Source: Candidatus Heimdallarchaeota archaeon (GTDB lineage Archaea; Asgardarchaeota; Wukongarchaeia; Wukongarchaeales; JBHIFL01). From it: a DNA stretch of 45,561 nt. Positions within the stretch are counted from its first letter, which is position 1, and each line of letters opens with the position of its first letter. This document shows positions 4,102 to 27,830 of the stretch, one piece after another. The translations under genes were made by a program, and so were the position numbers. The notes under the pieces were generated by a model. It made no database searches. It saw only the letters and a program-made list of their open reading frames with translations, and was not told where the DNA came from. The stretch is from the NCBI GenBank assembly GCA_046761065.1, contig JBHIFL010000034.1, positions 1 through 45,561 of the forward strand, read 5' to 3'.

Positions 4102-5265
4102 CTAAGCCACACGGCGTCGTCTAAGAGCCGCTACTAGCAGGGCGCTACCGAGTCCTAGAACAGCCAAAAATCGCAAATCTGCTTCTGCTTCACTCACGGC
4201 AGTCGTCTTCAATGCATCTTCGGAGAGTTGGACAACTTCTTGGGCGTTCTCGATAACTTCCTCAATCATCGTTGTACTGCCCTCTGGATCATGGAACCCA
4301 CGACTACTTCCACTTTCCTCAACCTCGTGCCATAGGTCCTCAACTTCTGTTAATTTGGCCTCAGCTTCAGCTAGTTTTACCGGATCTACTCCAACGGTGG
4401 TGTTAGCCGCAGCAAAGGCTTCACGAGCGGCCTCCATCTGAGCTTCGCCTTCAACGAATTTCTCGTCATATGCTGCTTGGATTTCGTCTTTTTTAACCCA
4501 TGACAACTCGAGATCATCACGGTGACATACCTCTTGGCCACACGCCTCCAGCCATACACCCATTGTGTGATTTGTTACCACGACGGGAGTGCCTCTGTCA
4601 AGAGCCTCACCATACATGTGGCACATGTTACAATCTGCTTCCATGCGTGTGACACTCGGTTCATGCGTGTGACATGTGGTGCATAAGTCGTCAACTTCTG
4701 CTTCCCGAAGTTGGTGTTCATTGACGGGGGTAGAGTGAGGGTCATGGCAAACCGCACAAGTTATTGAATGCTCCGTTTCAGCAAGGGTATCAACCCCACC
4801 CAGAGGCCAAGGTACTGCGCCTTCGGTAGTCATACAATGCACACAACTGGGTTGCTCGAACCCGCGTTCTATGAGGGTTTCCCTTGCATATGCATGTTTA
4901 CTCTGAGCCCATAGTTCATAGGGATCCCCGTGGCCCATATCATGGAAGGGACTATGGCATTCGCCACACAACTCAGCAGCCATGGTGACTGGCATGTGTC
5001 CTTCACCCGCCCCGCCTTGGTATGGGCCGTGGCAGGTCTCACAGGAGATACCCTCGTAGACTGGATCGTTCGTCGCGATAAACCCGTACAGGTCTTGGCC
5101 GATGGGGTTGCCCGTCTCATAGTTGGTGCCATTGACGTGGCACGACCAGCAGACGTCGCCCTCTCGGTTCTCATAAACATAAGAAACGGGAGTCGCATGG
5201 TTCGTCTCGTTCCACGCGTCGTAAATTTCTGAGTGGCAGGGAGAGGAATCTACTGAGGATGGAGG
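4102..5265 (-). pseudogene. Membrane-anchored multiheme cytochrome c, NrfA/c552-like C-terminus, 5' end missing
   Basis: The frame stays open 90 codons upstream of the ATG at 4995, up to TAA at 5266-5268, with no start codon or signal peptide. Motifs: SSPCH (broken), CWSCH, CETCH, CGECH, CVHCM, CAVCH, CTTCH, CNMCH, CGQEVCH, then a helical bundle with SRGFHDP and TM+RRRR. Confidence 0.8.
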
Positions 5266-5384
5266 TTACACAGCGATTCCAAATAGCTGAGGGTCTCATT
5301 GCTAGAGAGTCTTTTGTACTCGACTTTTGTATTGTTTCAAAAGATAATATGTTAAAGTAAGAGGACATTGGCTTGTTCAAAAAA

Positions 5385-5408
5385 TGGAAGAGGGGAGGGA
5401 AAAAAAAG
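5385..5408 (-). terminator. Pyrimidine/T-rich archaeal terminator after the EB_dh-like gene
   Basis: TTTTTTTTTCCCTCCCCTCTTCC directly after the stop on the minus strand. Confidence 0.5.
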
Positions 5409-5409
5409 C

Positions 5410-6669
5410 CTAAGCCGTTCGTCTTCGTCGGTTAGCGGCAACGATCAATAGGATTACATCGAGCGCAACAAACAGAGTCACTATTTCAAATCCAATTTCT
5501 AGTTCACTGACGACTTCACCAAAGGATAGGGCGTATGTCGACGTGGCTTGTGAGTGGTCGGTTCCTCCTCCTTTATTATCCATAACCGCAATGGAAAAAC
5601 CATAGGGGAGTGTCAAATCAGTGAATTGTACGTCATCGGTATTCGTGGCACCATCAGTTTTTGTGATAAGAGCCCGCTTGAATTCACTTGTCCACGTTCC
5701 GTTACTCCATGTGGCAGATTGCATCACATCCCCGCGACTTCCACTGGGCGGTCTTAGTATCCGTTCTGGTACTATCGCATCAAATTGTGCATACTTGTTC
5801 CAGGAGGTGGTGATCTGCTCTATCGTGGCGGTGGCGACTTCGAGGGTTTCACCTCCATCGATCTCACTTTGTGTCAGAACCATGGCATCAATGTAATTCG
5901 CAGGGGCGACTTCTAAGTAGAGGGGTCCGGTTTTATCTGCATTTCTGTTCCGACTGTAGGTGCTGCTACCACTATCACCGTGGCGACCACCATCTTCCGG
6001 CAGATCAGCTGGATCCTCATAAGTGATGTACTTGTCATCTATGTAGCCATTCATCGTTACGGAGCCTGCAGTCACTTCGTGGGTCTCGGGATCAACAGTT
6101 AGCGTGCCTGATTGTGACGCGGAGATGACACCCAGACTCCTTGCCGCTTTCATGTGCCAGATGTCACCAGTCTCTTCGGGGTTCTCTAGGAATGCCCCTG
6201 CTTCACCGTACTGCAGGTGGCATTTTGCCATGCACCCTGCTGTATAGAAGTTGGACATGTTGATGTTCCAAAGAAACGCGATTCGATCCTCGGATTGATC
6301 GGCTTCCGTCGTGGTCCAAGCAGTTCCATCCCAATTCCAGGAGCCACTCCTCGTCATGCTCATAGTCGAGTCGTCCCACTGCGCTAGGACATACAGATCC
6401 GTATCTGTGTGGACAGCTTTAAGTGTCACCGAGATGGCGCCACTGCCGCCGACAGTAGCTATCGTGATACTAGTTGCTTTGGCCCAAGCGGAATCTGTGG
6501 CGTCTCCATCCATTGTTGGAGTTGTTGTCACTTTTACAGATGTCAGTGTCTCTGCTTGTCTGACTAAGGTAGATGAGGCTGTAGTGGTTAATAATGTACT
6601 GATAGACAGCAGAACCAATATTGATAGGGCATAGGTTGCAATTCTTGTTTTGTTCCTACTAGTCTTCAT
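5410..6669 (-). CDS. Ethylbenzene-dehydrogenase-gamma-like (EB_dh/DOMON) heme-binding surface protein
   Basis: Signal peptide, PTMDG..D.AW, LYVLAQWDD, SEDRIAFLW, GCMAKCH, DIWHMKAAR, WTSEFKRAL, C-terminal GFE+TM+RRRR. Confidence 0.88.
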   Translation of the reverse strand: MKTSRNKTRIATYALSILVLLSISTLLTTTASSTLVRQAETLTSVKVTTTPTMDGDATDSAWAKATSITIATVGGSGAISVTLKAVHTDTDLYVLAQWDDSTMSMTRSGSWNWDGTAWTTTEADQSEDRIAFLWNINMSNFYTAGCMAKCHLQYGEAGAFLENPEETGDIWHMKAARSLGVISASQSGTLTVDPETHEVTAGSVTMNGYIDDKYITYEDPADLPEDGGRHGDSGSSTYSRNRNADKTGPLYLEVAPANYIDAMVLTQSEIDGGETLEVATATIEQITTSWNKYAQFDAIVPERILRPPSGSRGDVMQSATWSNGTWTSEFKRALITKTDGATNTDDVQFTDLTLPYGFSIAVMDNKGGGTDHSQATSTYALSFGEVVSELEIGFEIVTLFVALDVILLIVAANRRRRTA

Positions 6670-6715
6670 CTTATTCTTAACTCCTTAATTTTTTATCCAT
6701 ATTTAATATTTGACA

Positions 6716-6740
6716 AGAATATAACTTTTTGCATTATATA
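6716..6740 (-). promoter_or_regulatory. BRE/TATA promoter of the EB_dh-like gene
   Basis: GCAAAAAGTTATAT on the minus strand about 50 bp upstream of the ATG, with GGAG before the start. Confidence 0.5.
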
Positions 6741-6834
6741 GCTTTAATACATAGGATAGATTCTATAAGCCACGGAAAGGATAGTAAAACTATCGTAGGA
6801 CGGTTCTGGCTTTTTTGATTGATCTTCGACCAAA

Positions 6835-7281
6835 TTAGCCTGGCGGCTCCACGATAAGCTTGCCTGTCATCTCCCAGTGAGATGGAGTGCAGTATATGCC
6901 GCAGTAAAAGTCGTATACTCCTATTTGGGTGGGTGTAAATTCCAAGATAATTGGTTTCATTGGATATGCTGGGCCACTGTCAATGCCCAACTTTGGGATG
7001 ATGAAGCTGTGGATCACGTCTTGGGATAACAGGATAAGACGCACGTTCTGATCAACCGTGACTCGAATTACGTCAGGATCGAACCCCCCATTCTCTTGGA
7101 TTAACATCGTAACAAATATGTCCTCTGGGTCCTGTTTGGCTAGCGCATTGTTGAGCACTGGTATTATCACTGGAGAGAGTGGGATTACCGAGATAGCTGC
7201 TAGAACTGCTAGGAGAGCCACACCCTCCCAGGCGGTTTCTGAGGCACGAGAGTGTTTGACCGTTTGAGAATGTTTGACCAT
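6835..7281 (-). CDS. Membrane-anchored CuA-like cupredoxin (CoxB C-terminal type), 148 aa
   Basis: One TM, SQDVIHSF, YDFYCGIYCTPSHWEMTGKLIVE. Start moved to ATG 7281, just after the upstream stop at 7287. Confidence 0.88.
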   Translation of the reverse strand: MVKHSQTVKHSRASETAWEGVALLAVLAAISVIPLSPVIIPVLNNALAKQDPEDIFVTMLIQENGGFDPDVIRVTVDQNVRLILLSQDVIHSFIIPKLGIDSGPAYPMKPIILEFTPTQIGVYDFYCGIYCTPSHWEMTGKLIVEPPG

Positions 7282-7286
7282 TTTTA

Positions 7287-9221
7287 CTACCCCATCAAAA
7301 GCCAAATGAATACCATCGTCGATGCCATATGAAAAATGCTCATGATATAAGTGGCCCGAGTTGCATTCTTGGGGGCCTTGAAAAGTCGAAGAGCAATTCC
7401 ATGCGTAATCCGAATTGCAACTATAAGGCCGAGGAACACTAATACAGCCTGAACGAATGGGATCAGATCGGGGAATAGCGGTCTCCACGGGATGGTGGCT
7501 GTACCGAAGATGTTCCAGCCCCACCCGAACGGATCGGAGAACGCACGAAGAGGATACGCCCAACTCACGAAGAGTAGTGGTAGCGCAAAGGCTACCCACA
7601 GGAACAGGGCATATGGAGCCAAAGTATAAGTCATAGCGAGAAAGGTTCGTTTGGTGGCACCATGCTGCCCCCCAGCAACCCGATGGGCTGCCCACGAAAA
7701 AGCAAAGAAGATGGCAGGAACGATCACTAGCGGGACTGAGGCAGTAAGTGCTGCCCATTTGAGCCAATTCACAAAACCTTCTGCGGTAGGGACAAGCAGA
7801 TGGGCCGTATAGAGGTTTGCACCGAATTTAACCCCCATACTTGCCCAGTCTTTTATCCAAAAGTAGGGACCTAATAAAACGAATTCGTAAAAGATCACCA
7901 AGGAGAACCTTACGAAACCCATCCATGCTTCACTTGTATTCGTCCTTACTTTCGCGGTTAGATCCTTACCAGGCTTTTGGAGCTTCAACGTCATGTTATC
8001 CATTGGGCATGACTTCAAACATTCAAAGTCCAATCCACAGTTAGTGTTCGATTCGTTTCCGCCCGGATATAACTTCCACGGACATCCGTACCCGCGAGGA
8101 CTTCCTCTCATACATGCTTTTGTGGTGCATTTCTTACAAATCGACTTGTCTTTAGACCTCACGCTTAGGGAGGCATAGGTAGAGTGGTAACCGATGTATG
8201 CGCCTGCTGGACAGATGTATCGACAGAAGTTTCGCTCACCTCCAAAGACCAAATGCACCACAAAGGCAATGATGATCAACGTTAGGAAAAGGAGAGCGGA
8301 GATAAATGGTTGAGTCACTAACCATGGCGATATGAGCGATATTCCCAAGAACGTTAATGTCGGAATCCAAATGTTACGAAGCCGCTTAGGCCATGTCTTA
8401 TTCAGAGAGAGCTCATTCCGTGGCTCACGAACCGAATAGGTTCGACGCCTTGTCAACCAAAGGCCATAGGCCGGTAGGGGACAGGTGGCACACCAGATTC
8501 TTCCACCCAATAGGATCATGATCTCTACTGCCGCGAACCAAAGGATCCAGACAACGGCTATCGCGAAATTAAATCCCCCCATCGGGTTGCCGAAGAATCC
8601 TGTAAGTAGAACTATCATAAATATGAAGAGAGATGGCCATACGAGGAAGAAATAGACACCACGCCACCTTAAAAATCTTCCCAAGGCCTTCCCTATGATG
8701 GGAAGGCGTAGCAGGTCTATCCCTTCATCTTGCGTGAGCATTGGCGAACCAGATGAGCTATTCTTTTGTAGTGTTAAAACAGAGCCCACCGTTAAGACCA
8801 TCGTTGAACCAATGAAGATATAGAACGGATAATTGGGTTCCACAATCAAGTCCGCTACCATAAACGGGTGTAAAGGGCCGCAAGGTAGAGAACATCTGAT
8901 CTTGAATTTCCCTGGCCTGTCAAACAGTATAGGCTCAGTATCTACGACCTGAAAAGGAAAAACGTCTAGGAAGATGTCCTTGCCATCTATGTAGAAGCCA
9001 TGGGCTGTATCATTTGCTGTAACTCTAAAAATAATGGTTTCTCCCACTTGAACCGTTATTTTTTCAGGGTCCCAACCGAATTGGTACGCTATTAGCTCAA
9101 TAATGCGAGGTTCTTGACTTGTGGCTGTTCGAACAGTCGTCACGGCAGCAATGGTCAGAAGGATAGGTGCAATAATAAGAACAATTAATAACGCGGTACG
9201 GCGCCATCGCAATTTACTCAC
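7287..9221 (-). CDS. Cupredoxin fused to a NosR/NapH-like 4Fe-4S polytopic membrane domain
   Basis: DTAHGF and CSLPCGPLHPFM, then GRIWCATCP, FCRYICP, CKKCTTKAC, CGLDFECLKSCP and many TM segments. Confidence 0.9.
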   Translation of the reverse strand: MSKLRWRRTALLIVLIIAPILLTIAAVTTVRTATSQEPRIIELIAYQFGWDPEKITVQVGETIIFRVTANDTAHGFYIDGKDIFLDVFPFQVVDTEPILFDRPGKFKIRCSLPCGPLHPFMVADLIVEPNYPFYIFIGSTMVLTVGSVLTLQKNSSSGSPMLTQDEGIDLLRLPIIGKALGRFLRWRGVYFFLVWPSLFIFMIVLLTGFFGNPMGGFNFAIAVVWILWFAAVEIMILLGGRIWCATCPLPAYGLWLTRRRTYSVREPRNELSLNKTWPKRLRNIWIPTLTFLGISLISPWLVTQPFISALLFLTLIIIAFVVHLVFGGERNFCRYICPAGAYIGYHSTYASLSVRSKDKSICKKCTTKACMRGSPRGYGCPWKLYPGGNESNTNCGLDFECLKSCPMDNMTLKLQKPGKDLTAKVRTNTSEAWMGFVRFSLVIFYEFVLLGPYFWIKDWASMGVKFGANLYTAHLLVPTAEGFVNWLKWAALTASVPLVIVPAIFFAFSWAAHRVAGGQHGATKRTFLAMTYTLAPYALFLWVAFALPLLFVSWAYPLRAFSDPFGWGWNIFGTATIPWRPLFPDLIPFVQAVLVFLGLIVAIRITHGIALRLFKAPKNATRATYIMSIFHMASTMVFIWLLMG

Positions 9222-22087: not shown

Positions 22088-22249
22088 GCAGGTTTTCAGT
22101 TTTTATGAACATTTGTACTTATATTACATTAATTGAATGAAAATTGTTGAAGCGTATATTTCCATAAAGGTTGTTCATTAAAGAGATAAAGTGTCACAAA
22201 GACAATAAAGAAGTCGAGAGAATTTTGACATCCAGAGAGTGAGCTTTTT

Positions 22250-23005
22250 ATGAAGTTAATAGACTCTCATGCTCATTTAACTCCGAAATGGTTCAAAGAC
22301 CCATTGAAGATTATTGAGGAATCTAAGAAGTCTTTAGCTGGAATTGTTGTGATTGGGCTGGACCCAGATGAGTATCAATATCTTATTGATCTTGTTGCAG
22401 CGGAACCAACATTTATCAGGATTGCCCTTGGAATTTCTCCTACGTACGTTCATAAAATAAAAGTAGAGAAGGCTTTTCAAGAAATAGAAGAAAAAATTCA
22501 GAAAGTTCATGCGGTAGGAGAAATAGGTCTAGATTACTACCGTGTAAGAGATAAAGCATTACATGAACAACAAGAACAGCTCTTCCTCCGAGGGATTCAA
22601 CTAGCCAATGCGCAGAATCAACCACTCGTGATCCACTCAAGAGGCGCTGAAGCCAAGGTGGTGCAACTCCTCTCGCGATATGCCGAAACGATGGTCGTAT
22701 TACATTGTTTTGGGGGAGTAAATCAAGTCTCCCTCGCTTGTGCAAACGGCTTTTTTATTTCCATTCCAACTGCTGTTACTTATCGTCAGGAGTTTAGAGA
22801 GGTAGCGATGAAAGTTTCTCTTGACCATCTTCTAATCGAAACCGATAGTCCTTTTCTTTCACCTATCCGAGGGCGGAAGAAAAACACCCCAAAGAATGTC
22901 AAGTATGCTGCAAGAGAGATTGCAAGACTACGGGAGCTTTCACTGGCAGACATCGCGAATGTCACAACGAAAAATGCTCAAACTCTCTTTTGGAGGACAT
23001 TCTAG
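22250..23005 (+). CDS. tatD: TatD-family nuclease
   Basis: DSHAH, VGEIGLDYY, IHSR, LHCF, ETDSP. Confidence 0.95.
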   Translation: MKLIDSHAHLTPKWFKDPLKIIEESKKSLAGIVVIGLDPDEYQYLIDLVAAEPTFIRIALGISPTYVHKIKVEKAFQEIEEKIQKVHAVGEIGLDYYRVRDKALHEQQEQLFLRGIQLANAQNQPLVIHSRGAEAKVVQLLSRYAETMVVLHCFGGVNQVSLACANGFFISIPTAVTYRQEFREVAMKVSLDHLLIETDSPFLSPIRGRKKNTPKNVKYAAREIARLRELSLADIANVTTKNAQTLFWRTF

Positions 23006-23083
23006 TAAGAGATGACACAATTTTATCTTATTAGACCTTTAAAAACTCATTTTTAAATCCTTTATCAATACTCCAAACTATTT

Positions 23084-23370
23084 GAATTCGCCCATTCCGG
23101 TCCGGATTCGCCTGAAACACCGGTGTTTCTGGATTTTTTAGCAAGGTTTAAAGATTTTCCATCACTGAATTTGCGAAGGAATCCCCGTCTCACGAAAGTT
23201 CCTCACCCCTTTTTAAACTCCTCGTGAGTTGGGGAAGGGTCGCGCCTTCGGGTGCGACCCAAGGAGGTCGGAACGGACTTCCTAATCCTACAAGTGAACG
23301 AGCTCCATTTTCGGCACCCTCTATTTTGGAGGGATTAAAAAATTGTTCCACGGGCTCTCCGAGCGAATTC
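23084..23370 (+). ncRNA. Candidate 287-nt structured non-coding RNA of unknown family
   Basis: Ends pair (GAATTCGC/GCGAATTC), four internal helical domains, a cUUCGg tetraloop on a 10-bp stem, upstream TTTTAAAT, and no ORF. Confidence 0.65.
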
Positions 23371-23569
23371 GTATTTTAACCGGAGTTTATAAAGAGTTTT
23401 TATATTTGGTGTCAAACAACTTTTATAATCGCTACCTCAATGCGATACTATAAAATTATCTAGTAAATGAGGGAAGCAACTGATTCAATTTCAATAGAGG
23501 TGTGAAAATAATAGGCAATTCCACAGCAATTTCTAAGGTTAAAGCAATTTACTTTCTAACAGCGATGTT

Positions 23570-24340
23570 TTATATTGGTCTACCGACAGAAATGATATAG
23601 AGTGGTTTTTCCTTACCCGGTAACTTCAGCAATCGTTGAATCCAATCGTCATAGAATGCGCCTATAACTACAGCTCCTAGTTCCAGACTCTCCGCTTGAA
23701 GGTAAATATTTTCTCCCACGTGGCCAACTTCCATATGGACGTATTGTTTTCCCCTCTCCCCGTATCTCTCGGTTGTCCTTTCGTATATGGCGGTTAAGAT
23801 GATGTTTATTGAAGCTTTTCTGACCCATTCTTGACTCACCGCTGCGGAACTAAGTTCTTCTGATAAATCACCCTCAATGTACTTCTCTAAGACGTGTTCA
23901 TAGAGATTGTAATGATACAACCCCTCACTCAATTCCTCAACTCCACCTTTTCTTATGACAACGTAAACTTCTAGGGGATAAGTTGCACCTGCTGATGGAG
24001 CGGTTCTAAACTTATTTACAGGCTCGGTGATCCCCTGAGCTGCCCAAAGCAGGTTGGACAGTTCTTCGAGTTTGATGGGTTCGTTCAGATAATCTCTTCG
24101 CGACCTCCGCCTAGCAATCGCCTCTTCGACGCTCAGCTCACCCTTAAGCTTCGGTGACGGTAACTTAACCCTATCTATAATCACCTTGACTCCACCTCTC
24201 AGCTTGATTTCAGAAACAAATCTTTCTAACTGTGGTTCCCCAAATAGAATTGCGGCAATGGATACCAATCCGGCAAATGCTGTTAGGAGTGCAAACTTAA
24301 GAAAATCCCGTCTTCCACTTTTCAACGTGCTTTCCTCCAA
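23570..24340 (-). CDS. SagB/ThcOx-family nitroreductase-like protein with Tat signal
   Basis: SGRRDFLK + TM, RRRSRRDY, RTAPSAGATYPLE, GHVGENIYL, IGAFYD. Confidence 0.92.
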   Translation of the reverse strand: MEESTLKSGRRDFLKFALLTAFAGLVSIAAILFGEPQLERFVSEIKLRGGVKVIIDRVKLPSPKLKGELSVEEAIARRRSRRDYLNEPIKLEELSNLLWAAQGITEPVNKFRTAPSAGATYPLEVYVVIRKGGVEELSEGLYHYNLYEHVLEKYIEGDLSEELSSAAVSQEWVRKASINIILTAIYERTTERYGERGKQYVHMEVGHVGENIYLQAESLELGAVVIGAFYDDWIQRLLKLPGKEKPLYIISVGRPI

Positions 24341-25119
24341 TTAAAGAAATGGGATTTAACCTCTATCGCTGATGGTCCGCATGCATGAGCACAATCTAGA
24401 CACCTAATGCAATCCACGCTCTTCAAACCATTCCGTAGGGGTTCTAGATCCATTTGGCATACCAAGGAACACCGTTTGTGCCCTTCACATTTATCTCGGT
24501 TAACTCTCAATCCAATCAGGCTTACCTTGTTGAAAGGGCCTAAAATGGTCCCAAGTGGGCAGATCTTGCACCAAGATCTCCGCATAAATATGGATAGACC
24601 CAAGAAAAATGTGAAGGTAAATACTCTGAGAACCCAGAAGATCCACGGAACTGTTAAGATAGTTGAAGTCAGAGTTACACCGACAATGTAGATTGGGTCA
24701 AGAATAAAGGATAGGTCAAATAGCGGTGAGAAAAATCCCAATAAGATCGGATAAGCAAGGCCATAGGCAATTAAGAAAGCGAAGAACCCAAAGAAAACCT
24801 TAATGATCCTTAAATCTTTCCGAAGTGGATTGATCCCTTCTAGCTTTCTGGCACAAGTGGAACCAATTTCTTGAAGTGCGCCGTAAGGACAAGTCCATGA
24901 ACAAAAGGCTTTTCCAACCAGAAGTCCACTTACCAGAAAATTAACTAAGAGAATTCTTCTAATCGGCGTTGTTTTGGGGTTCATTAAGCAGGAGAATATC
25001 GGGCATTCGCCGCAAACAATCCAAGGCAAGGGGAAGGGACAAAGGTACAATGATTGAAGGAATGGGAAAAGTAAGATGCTAGGCGCGATAAATCGGCCTA
25101 GTTTTTGTTTAGAATTCAT
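24322..25119 (-). CDS. NapH-like 4Fe-4S membrane protein
   Basis: FCSWTCPYG, WCKICPLG, CEGHKRCSLVC, CIRCLDCAHAC. Confidence 0.9.
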   Translation of the reverse strand: MNSKQKLGRFIAPSILLFPFLQSLYLCPFPLPWIVCGECPIFSCLMNPKTTPIRRILLVNFLVSGLLVGKAFCSWTCPYGALQEIGSTCARKLEGINPLRKDLRIIKVFFGFFAFLIAYGLAYPILLGFFSPLFDLSFILDPIYIVGVTLTSTILTVPWIFWVLRVFTFTFFLGLSIFMRRSWCKICPLGTILGPFNKVSLIGLRVNRDKCEGHKRCSLVCQMDLEPLRNGLKSVDCIRCLDCAHACGPSAIEVKSHFFNWRKAR

Positions 25120-26605: not shown

Positions 26606-26635
26606 TGTTGTCGCCCGCAGGATGCGGGTGCAACA
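26606..26635 (+). promoter_or_regulatory. 5'-leader hairpin abutting the ribosome-binding site
   Basis: TGTTG(T)CGCCCGCA-GGA-TGCGGGTGCAACA followed directly by AGGAG; TTTAAATA upstream. Confidence 0.55.
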
Positions 26636-26651
26636 AGGAGAAATATAGTAG

Positions 26652-26795
26652 ATGTCTTATAGAGACGTAAGAGAAATGCATAAAGTAACATGTGCCGATT
26701 GTGGCAAAGAAACCGAAGTTCCATTCAAGCCGGATGGCCGGCGACCTGTCTATTGTCGGGATTGTTATCAAAAGCATCGACCAAGACGATTTTAG
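26652..26795 (+). CDS. CxxC-x17-CxxC zinc-ribbon small protein, 47 aa, absent from the ORF track
   Basis: MSYRDVREMHKVTCADCGKETEVPFKPDGRRPVYCRDCYQKHRPRRF. Confidence 0.93.
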   Translation: MSYRDVREMHKVTCADCGKETEVPFKPDGRRPVYCRDCYQKHRPRRF

Positions 26796-26819
26796 TTCGC
26801 AAGAATTAAAATTCCTATG

Positions 26820-26853
26820 AGGTGGAGTTCTCCACCTGATCTTTTCTTTTTTT
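26820..26853 (+). terminator. Hairpin plus T-tract terminator
   Basis: AGGTGGAG-TT-CTCCACCT then CTTTTCTTTTTTT. Confidence 0.6.
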
Positions 26854-27066
26854 AAACTAAAGGGGATAGAGTCAAAATGGTAGAACAACATCATAAAATT
26901 AGTGGAATTTTTTTAACCACTTTTAAAAACTAACTCCACTGAAACCTTACGCTCGTTCTTGTTGGGGATCGCCAATTGGGGCTGATTCCTGCTTCGTGCT
27001 CAGTCGTCAATAGGTTCAAACTGTTTTGGTATTACTCACAAAACAAAACAAGTGCTACTTTTAGTT

Positions 27067-27395
27067 CTGTCGAAATGGCAAATGATTGGTAGTGAATTTA
27101 TTGTTTACGAACTTTCTCGCACTCCGGATCCTGACCGTAGAATGAAAGTATTAATCCTGTCAAGACTTACAACCGAAATAACTAAGATTATTTACAGATA
27201 ATTAACCGCGCTAAAACCTTTCAGGAATATGGAATTAAGTCTATTAATACTTTACATTTAACTTATGCAGAGCAAGGGAAGGTAGATGTATTTCTTACTA
27301 CCGATGATCTATTGCTCATAAAATGCCAGCAAAAGCGAGACGCGATTCATGTAAAAGTAACTAACCCTTTAACATGGCTAATGGAGGTTCTGTAA
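27067..27395 (+). pseudogene. PIN-domain toxin fragment, 5'-truncated and frameshifted
   Basis: WQMIGSE..YELSRTPDPDRR then, in a shifted frame, GIKSINTLHLTYAE..VDVFLTTDD...VTNPLTWL. Confidence 0.8.
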
Positions 27396-27586
27396 TGACA
27401 GTGTTGAGCCCGTATGAAATTCGGATGAAAGGCTTTGAGGCCTTAGCCACCGCCTAAGGTTCTGTAGGGATGATCCAGTTTCTCCAACAATTTGACTTGG
27501 GAGAAGGCGATTACACAAAAGATAGAGGGAAATGGTTAGATCACCTAACCATAAATGATGTCGTTGAACAAATTCAGGAAAACTGA
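27395..27586 (+). pseudogene. Antitoxin-like partner of the PIN gene, one nonsense codon
   Basis: TAATG coupling; EIRMKGFEALATA*GSVGMIQFLQQFDLGEGDYTKDR. Confidence 0.75.
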
Positions 27587-27830
27587 AAAGACTCAGTGTC
27601 AGATTATGCAGTGTTCTTTAGACAAAACGATTCCCTCCCAAGGGAAATCCCTAATAAAAAGACTCTTCCAAGCAAGAGACCCGTATGAAATTCCTTACCC
27701 TGTCGAGAAGGATGATCCCCGGACTCTGGATGAGCCATCCGCTTCGTGGTTAGGTTCGGGCGAAGGACACATCTTCGGCGGGTTGGACACAACCCCCCCT
27801 TTAAAGGACATTTATTCATCAAGGAACTAA

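Follow-up and report, generated by a model that had tools for sequence, protein, structure and literature searches.

A 388-bp insertion with a folded core, probably a gene-less MITE-like element, downstream of tatD in an Asgard archaeon

MITEs are intergenic units that are bounded by inverted repeats, give stable stem-loop transcripts, carry promoters and lose their target repeats with age (PMC10969869). The element that we describe here resembles the prokaryotic MITEs – Correia, QMITE and SM1–SM4 of Sulfolobus (PMC10969869) – in that it is short, gene-less, intergenic and dispersed, has inverted-repeat ends with promoter-like boxes and a predicted stem-loop transcript, and decays after insertion. 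It differs from MITEs in its long, imperfect and asymmetric repeats and its few copies; no target duplication is shown, no partner transposase has like ends, and the left end appears to come from the coding 3′ end of a gene that does not encode a transposase.

Guide-RNA-only PATEs are derivatives of IS200/IS605 elements (PMC10055086). They are gene-less, carry a structured strand into which the 3′ end of the parent ORF extends, and leave no target duplication. The element is similarly gene-less with a structured strand over the 3′ end of its likely parent ORF, but neither its ends nor its scaffold are like those of the genome’s TnpA/TnpB elements, and the parent ORF has a predicted PUR fold rather than a RuvC nuclease; moreover, it has no Rfam match, and a profile for IscB (RRXRR) found nothing in the assembly, the control being silent as well. 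With archaeal integron cassettes and their attC sites (PMC9668308) the element shares a left end that is like a core site, and attC-type sites are found in the genome; unlike such cassettes, it has no attC body, its core-like sites face inward, the crossover G is missing and the boundary does not fit. Finally, the aloposons of Heimdallarchaeum (PMC8813620) share with the genomic island on contig C32 discussed below an Asgard host and a terminal giant-protein gene. They integrate at tRNA genes and carry a pair of giant genes as well as one for MinD/ParA, features that were not seen in the part of the C32 island that we examined; no comparable small element was found in the passages on aloposons that we consulted.

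An insertion between tatD and a nitroreductase gene

The window, i.e. the whole stretch of DNA analysed (45,561 nt), corresponds to contig C34 in an archaeal assembly of 4.4 Mb (234 contigs, 91% complete, 8% contaminated) whose sequence is found in hydrothermal-vent sequencing runs. The host’s class is represented by three genomes in the genome collection; a close relative of its TatD is labelled Candidatus Hodarchaeota and relatives of its panE are labelled Thorarchaeota, which places the host among the Asgard archaea. The first-pass annotation had singled out positions 23084–23370 as an ORF-free, GC-rich island in an AT-rich spacer and proposed an independently transcribed ncRNA, possibly of a new class. 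The description of the island is accurate: GC content is 50% in this 287-mer, whereas 100-nt bins on either side have ~30% and the genome as a whole 42%, and no ORF of at least 80 aa overlaps it. The bounds need correction, as the match to a variant contig and the fit to the empty site delimit a longer unit. The features of the locus are as follows:

22250–23005, plus strand: tatD, the upstream host gene (context; PF01026, E 2.5e-61)
23031–23418, plus strand: the whole inserted unit, 388 bp, delimited by the metagenome variant match, the empty-site comparison and the span of the C38 and C32 copies
23031–23091, plus strand: left imperfect inverted repeat, whose inner end is the 5′ arm of the closing stem; ~12 nt of the repeat are absent from the right arm
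23031–23070, plus strand: counterpart of the 3′ terminus of the C32 ORF (its last 13 codons and the stop), homologous by alignment with relatives and C32; non-coding in the window
23051–23058, plus strand: putative TATA-like box inside the left repeat, 26 nt upstream of the closing stem
23084–23370, plus strand: folded core (the originally proposed RNA), closed by an 8-bp stem
23183–23234, plus strand: long stem-loop (domain 2), kept only in the window copy and the 89% variant
23237–23260, plus strand: 10-bp hairpin with a UUCG loop, followed across copies by pair counts
23279–23355, plus strand: most conserved core, 77 nt, including a TAATCC/GGATTA match
23363–23418, minus strand: right imperfect inverted repeat, from the comparison of the ends and the empty-site junction
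23386–23393, minus strand: putative inward-facing TATA-like box inside the right repeat
23570–24340, minus strand: nitroreductase gene, the downstream host gene (context; PF00881)

The spacer between tatD and the nitroreductase gene is 564 nt long in the window versus 168–186 nt in relatives with the same gene order, whose TatD is ~81–85% identical to that of the window. Their DNA aligns up to the end of tatD and resumes from ~23488, and colinearity returns upon removal of ~376–389 nt, longer deletions fitting much worse. The empty-site alignment has a 10-nt deficit at the junction: the rebuilt site is ~10 nt short, not long. Similarly, the panE–PAC2 spacer measures ~600 nt with the C38 copy of the element and ~120–194 nt in relatives. 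These sequence comparisons show the tatD-site and C38 copies to be insertions, both sites being empty in relatives; the absence of the sequence at tatD from all relatives examined speaks against the host ncRNA maintained at this locus that had been proposed. Elsewhere in the window, the pho4–tatD spacer (22088–22249) is 162 nt long versus 69 nt in relatives, suggesting a further small insertion upstream of tatD. Within the ferredoxin gene, positions 24895–24998 are matched at lower identity by several short contigs from the source runs, and read depth rises at the end of the aligned stretch, which suggests a repeated or paralogous segment.

A second contig from the source runs matches 23031–23350 and 23323–23418 at ~89% identity and then runs into other sequence. 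This variant ends at almost the same points as the window copy, differs from it in the right flank and does not resemble it past the left end; its depth is about half, in four runs of one study that are perhaps the source of the assembly and are not independent of it. It sits elsewhere, since there is no second copy of tatD or pho4 at its depth. The genome itself holds two more copies, one on C38 (~63–70% identical, E 1.5e-29) and one on C32, which span profile positions 2–3 to 387–390, i.e. the same ~388-position interval; the C32 copy has counterparts behind the same gene in contigs of three relatives. A profile search of the genome found no copy beyond the three; weak matches (a second C32 site, C40, C41, C31 and C57) had E values above 0.01 and were dropped. 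The copies thus counted in the genome and the runs occupy four unrelated sites and have nearly common ends. Dispersal, common ends and empty orthologous sites are all as in MITEs, and so is the lack of coding capacity of the short unit (no ORF of at least 80 aa and no codon phase over the 388 bp). Dispersed copies with nearly common ends speak against an independently maintained host RNA.

The C32 copy as a DNA query had no match in 399 other genomes of the phylum, a profile search of 100 genomes of the phylum did not find the family, and a pattern search of 300 gave no credible match. Longer patterns had no match in viral contigs and a single one in an unrelated, bacterial-looking metagenome contig; plasmid and phage collections yielded no meaningful match. 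A 15-mer pattern, which gave at least 120 chance-like matches in the genome contigs, was too short.

The predicted fold and its decay among the copies

The 287-mer folds at -106.6 kcal/mol on the plus strand (z -4.68) and at -102.7 kcal/mol on the minus strand (z -3.29). None of 200 shuffles was as stable on either strand, nor was any of 400 GC-matched genomic 287-mers; the folded structure is genuine. The preference for the plus strand, which had been claimed initially, agrees with these values and with both subfamily ancestors (see below), which also fold better on plus. All complementary segments named in the first-pass annotation are found where it placed them, and the ends do pair, with an ensemble probability of 0.99 for the closing stem. 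Its four helical domains fared unequally: domain 2 (0.99–1.0) and the UUCG hairpin at 23237–23260 (1.0) stand, and domain 1 (0.15 for its outer and 0.0 for its inner part) and domain 4 (0.0) do not, being out-competed by structures that include a hairpin at 23262–23283 (0.99). The two TATA-like boxes exist as described, but the same loose motif has at least 10 matches on the plus strand and at least 5 on the minus strand, partly overlapping, within 460 nt, and the plus-strand box is missing from 3 of the 4 C32-type copies.

Among present copies, only that in the window has a strong fold. Plus-strand z values are -4.1 for the window copy, -1.3 for the variant (rebuilt from listed differences, five of them not shown), +0.3 for C38, -2.3 for C32 and -1.1, -1.7 and +0.1 for the three relatives. 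The inverted repeats do not explain all of the structure, since the interior of the window copy alone folds at z -4.7. The UUCG hairpin retains 9 of its 10 pairs in the variant (mostly as G-U), 4 in C38 and 2–3 in the C32-type copies. Of 20 substitutions that separate the window copy from the variant at paired sites, 11 disrupt the pair; the null mean is 10.3–12.4. The variant is biased towards G-U pairs (16 A>G or C>T versus 6 G>A or T>C); we considered this as a sign of selection and rejected it, because neither pair-breaking nor folding energy departed from the permutation null. The originally drawn structure, itself derived from one of the rows compared, is paired in 61% of cells across the six copies, which is above shuffled and slid controls and, by rough estimate, about what shared descent gives at 55–65% identity. 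Compensatory change, the mark of a functional structured ncRNA, is not seen among the present copies: structure is kept no further than shared descent predicts, and pairs break at the null rate.

The ancestors look different. The four C32-type copies are 80–84% identical, as are four-fold degenerate sites of the island genes (0.80–0.83), which indicates neutral drift. Their consensus folds on the plus strand at z -2.5 to -5.2, more weakly on minus, and far better than its members, so there was a plus-strand-folded ancestor whose copies decay after insertion; consensus sequences of both genes flanking the C32 copy have no comparable fold. The two subfamilies are only ~55% alike, and the one high-probability helix at identical columns is the closing stem, with 8 pairs in common and one C-G/G-C swap; the interior helices differ. 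The joint fold of the two ancestors reaches -40.1 versus -28.4 ± 5.0 under neutral divergence, a marginal result (p 0.03). Conservation is highest in the 77-nt core, with 42% invariant columns among seven copies versus 0–23% in other segments (one copy has a deletion that removes the segment with 0%); the core has no codon phase, its invariant columns being distributed 12/12/10.

No known RNA family accounts for the candidate. At both gathering and E-value thresholds, Rfam searches gave nothing above chance for the window copy or for four other loci, and ARAGORN found nothing in the candidate. It is not a tRNA, SRP RNA, tmRNA or RNase P RNA, none of which the first-pass annotation had been able to match to it; the family is undescribed as far as the searched libraries reach. 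Archaeal RNase P and SRP RNAs are likewise ~300 nt long and multi-branched with paired ends, but no covariance model of either matches the candidate, and the true genes lie apart from it, that of RNase P RNA on C20 (193 bits) and that of SRP RNA on C1 (98 bits). We also rejected a tRNA with several introns: by inspection, the sequence and its paralogs lack an acceptor stem with U8 and a T-arm behind it such as the genome’s intron-rich tRNAs have, and the candidate is not among the tRNA matches of ARAGORN or of a pattern scan of the genome. As an observation of its own, ARAGORN finds only 3 intron-less tRNAs in the 4.4 Mb, and the pattern scan points to tRNA genes apparently with two or three introns, including at T-loop and D-arm positions, e.g. 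C1:159373(-), C1:153930(-), C5:51737(-), C5:44744(-), C19:47151(-) and C65:19410(+). The 16S rRNA match at C1:440–2273 is 1,834 nt long versus 1,478 model positions, implying ~350 nt of inserted sequence, which is not homologous to the element.

The ends, the C32 locus and possible mobilising enzymes

The ends of the unit, ~60–70 nt each, are imperfect inverted repeats of which the closing stem is the inner part. Aligned globally, left and right score 47.5 versus 25.5 ± 5.6 in shuffles, 0 of 1000 of which reach that value; terminal repeats of this kind (imperfect, ~60 bp, p<0.001) give the window copy the outline of a MITE. A sub-terminal repeat is detectable in both the window copy and C38 (p ~0.01), and over the full ends the signal is p 0.18 in C38 and p 0.05–0.67 in the C32-type copies. 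C38 and the variant both continue into TCTAA, the complement of the left terminus; the window copy lacks this motif, which it seems to have lost judging from the alignment, along with ~10 nt of host DNA at the junction. A target-site duplication is unconvincing, at p 0.06 for the window copy and p 0.59 for C38, and aged copies can lose the duplication. A 458-bp boundary defined by direct repeats fits the empty site badly.

The first 39 nt of the element correspond to the last codons of a 168-aa orphan ORF at C32:44424–44930. The predicted structure of its product (mean pLDDT 74, from four sequences) matches Pur-alpha repeat I–II (Foldseek E 2.5e-4; Z 9.4, rmsd 3.8, 121 residues aligned) as well as MRP1/2 and Whirly, suggesting a tandem PUR/Whirly fold. 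Proteins with this fold bind single-stranded nucleic acids; a predicted common fold shows no function for the 168-aa protein itself. Its tail resembles what we take to be a PCNA-binding PIP box. Only four homologs were found, and none in 150 other genomes of the phylum; an ESM Atlas search with the protein returned only leads under 0.9. The most distant homolog (39% identical) has no element, and the C-termini align without gaps, so the last codons are probably native to the gene. Going by this alignment, the dispersed copies probably derive from the C32 locus. The ORF evolves almost neutrally, identity over all sites being close to that at four-fold sites. Together with the element, a four-copy palindrome array and a giant-protein gene, it forms a block with a four-fold-site identity of 0.80 versus 0.54–0.68 in host genes, and the block is for this reason read as a more recently exchanged island. 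The array (C32:45238–45335) consists of 16-bp palindromic repeats, with a strong promoter-like box and then a gene behind it, and also occurs at C7:45575 and C76:18384; the gene behind it on C32 runs to ~3,965 aa in a relative.

Which enzyme might move the unit was addressed through its ends. Compared with 23 transposase or recombinase loci, they scored at best 31 (null 95th percentile, 30), i.e. none above background, and a genome-wide search for like ends at an autonomous partner found none in this assembly, which is 91% complete and in 234 contigs. The genome’s single IS110 locus gave no profile or end match, and other IS110 families could be unassembled. An IS630-family transposase (C35, ~26620–27790) has terminal inverted repeats of ~35 bp that are unlike the element’s ends. 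The genome encodes Y1 transposases; the element profile had no match in 12 TnpB 3′ regions, and the end motif differs. Routes by retro-copying or casposons have no support, since profiles for reverse transcriptase and Cas1 found nothing in the assembly. Sites of attC type are present at C94:4353–4396 and C94:4973–5034. At the element’s left end, TTAGAC resembles the core site of an integron, and the element’s core-like sites face inward; there is no attC site at the 3′ end and no G|TT crossover, the base preceding the left end being A or T, not G. We rejected an integron cassette on these grounds, and a boundary comprising cassette plus attC fits the empty site with a score of 45 versus 98 for the unit. 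As a separate observation, long inverted repeats lie near the attC-type sites on C94, at ~6890–8614 (within 4353–8625).

Competing readings and what the element may mean

With moderate confidence, we read the unit as a gene-less, non-autonomous, MITE-like mobile element of 388 bp whose family is seen only in one Asgard lineage. It would have arisen from the 3′ end of the Pur-alpha-fold gene together with the downstream region, on the horizontally exchanged C32 island, and an enzyme that recognises both ends, most simply a transposase or recombinase, would move it in trans. The copies sit at unrelated sites and now drift neutrally, that in the window being the best preserved. The fold would then result incidentally from the repeats, or would belong to the mobile single strand or transcript, rather than serve the host. 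A MITE was also the alternative named in the first-pass annotation; it comes closer than the ncRNA, although copies are few and no target duplication is demonstrated. We did not file the element as a plain MITE because the searches for a duplication and for a partner gave no clear match. Other points that sit badly with the MITE-like reading are that the assembly has only three copies and that the repeats are asymmetric, and weak in C38 and the C32-type copies; a conserved 77-nt interior core between subfamilies that are otherwise so divergent is more than a plain MITE needs.

A doubtful alternative is that the C32 island carries a ~290-nt plus-strand RNA gene which would partner the PUR-fold protein and spread as a gene-less cassette, by analogy with guide-RNA-only derivatives of IS200/IS605. 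The RNA’s 5′ end or promoter would overlap the 3′ end of the Pur-alpha-fold gene. This would accommodate the start of the element within the last 13 codons of the ORF and the match of the ORF model to Pur-alpha repeats, the plus-strand bias of both subfamily ancestors, the common closing stem with its one compensatory swap, the marginal joint fold, the conserved 3′ core, and the TATA-like box 26 nt before the stem. It is harder to square with the most distant ORF homolog, which has no such element behind it, with the almost neutral evolution of the ORF, and with present copies that do not keep the fold and subfamilies that differ in their interior helices. Just as tentatively, one may envisage an undescribed structured RNA or single-stranded-DNA module which, together with the predicted tandem PUR-repeat protein and its PCNA-binding-like tail, would belong to an Asgard island and spread, gene-less and duplication-free, via a single-stranded intermediate.

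HUH and integron-type recombinases use folded single strands as substrates, and their insertions lack a target duplication. That the element is a single-stranded-DNA substrate of an HUH (TnpA/RAYT-like) or integron-type tyrosine recombinase is unlikely: strand-biased folding, the want of a convincing target duplication, the genome’s Y1 transposases and attC-type sites (C94), and the left end like TTAGAC are in keeping with it, but the right ends of the genome’s IS200/IS605 elements feature a G-rich sub-terminal hairpin with no counterpart in the element, whose profile misses the IS200/IS605 ends, and the integron side fails on the base before the left end, the missing attC body and the boundary score.

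An independent host ncRNA is unlikely. For the form in which it was first proposed, an independently transcribed housekeeping or regulatory RNA of a new class, we see very little room: it would suit the strong fold, the UUCG hairpin, the TATA-like box at the expected distance and the lack of an Rfam match, but copies with nearly common ends are dispersed and do not maintain the structure, the tatD site is empty in relatives, and the phylum-wide DNA, profile and pattern searches did not credibly find it. A decayed protein-coding fragment with an incidental fold is equally improbable: the C32-type consensus has a stop-free plus frame of 118 codons (just above the shuffles’ 95th percentile) and a minus frame of 90 codons, but mismatches and invariant columns are spread evenly over codon positions, all four C32-type copies have 1–2-nt indels, and the common ends and inverted repeats would be left unexplained.

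As a MITE-like insert, the element adds modestly to what is known of the Asgard mobilome, which has been little studied, and it carries a caution: a single well-preserved copy of a decaying element can mimic a new RNA class. Three points about it are unusual: the 3′ end of a Pur-alpha-fold gene appears to be where the unit was cut from, its ancestors had a fold on one strand and a conserved 77-nt core, and neither a target duplication nor a partner transposase can be seen. A fold that served the PUR-fold protein or single-stranded movement would mean a new mobile system in the archaea closest to eukaryotes, and a small protein with a 290-nt substrate makes a system that is testable in vitro. 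Should the PUR-associated structured module prove real, it would represent a new kind of mobile ribonucleoprotein system.
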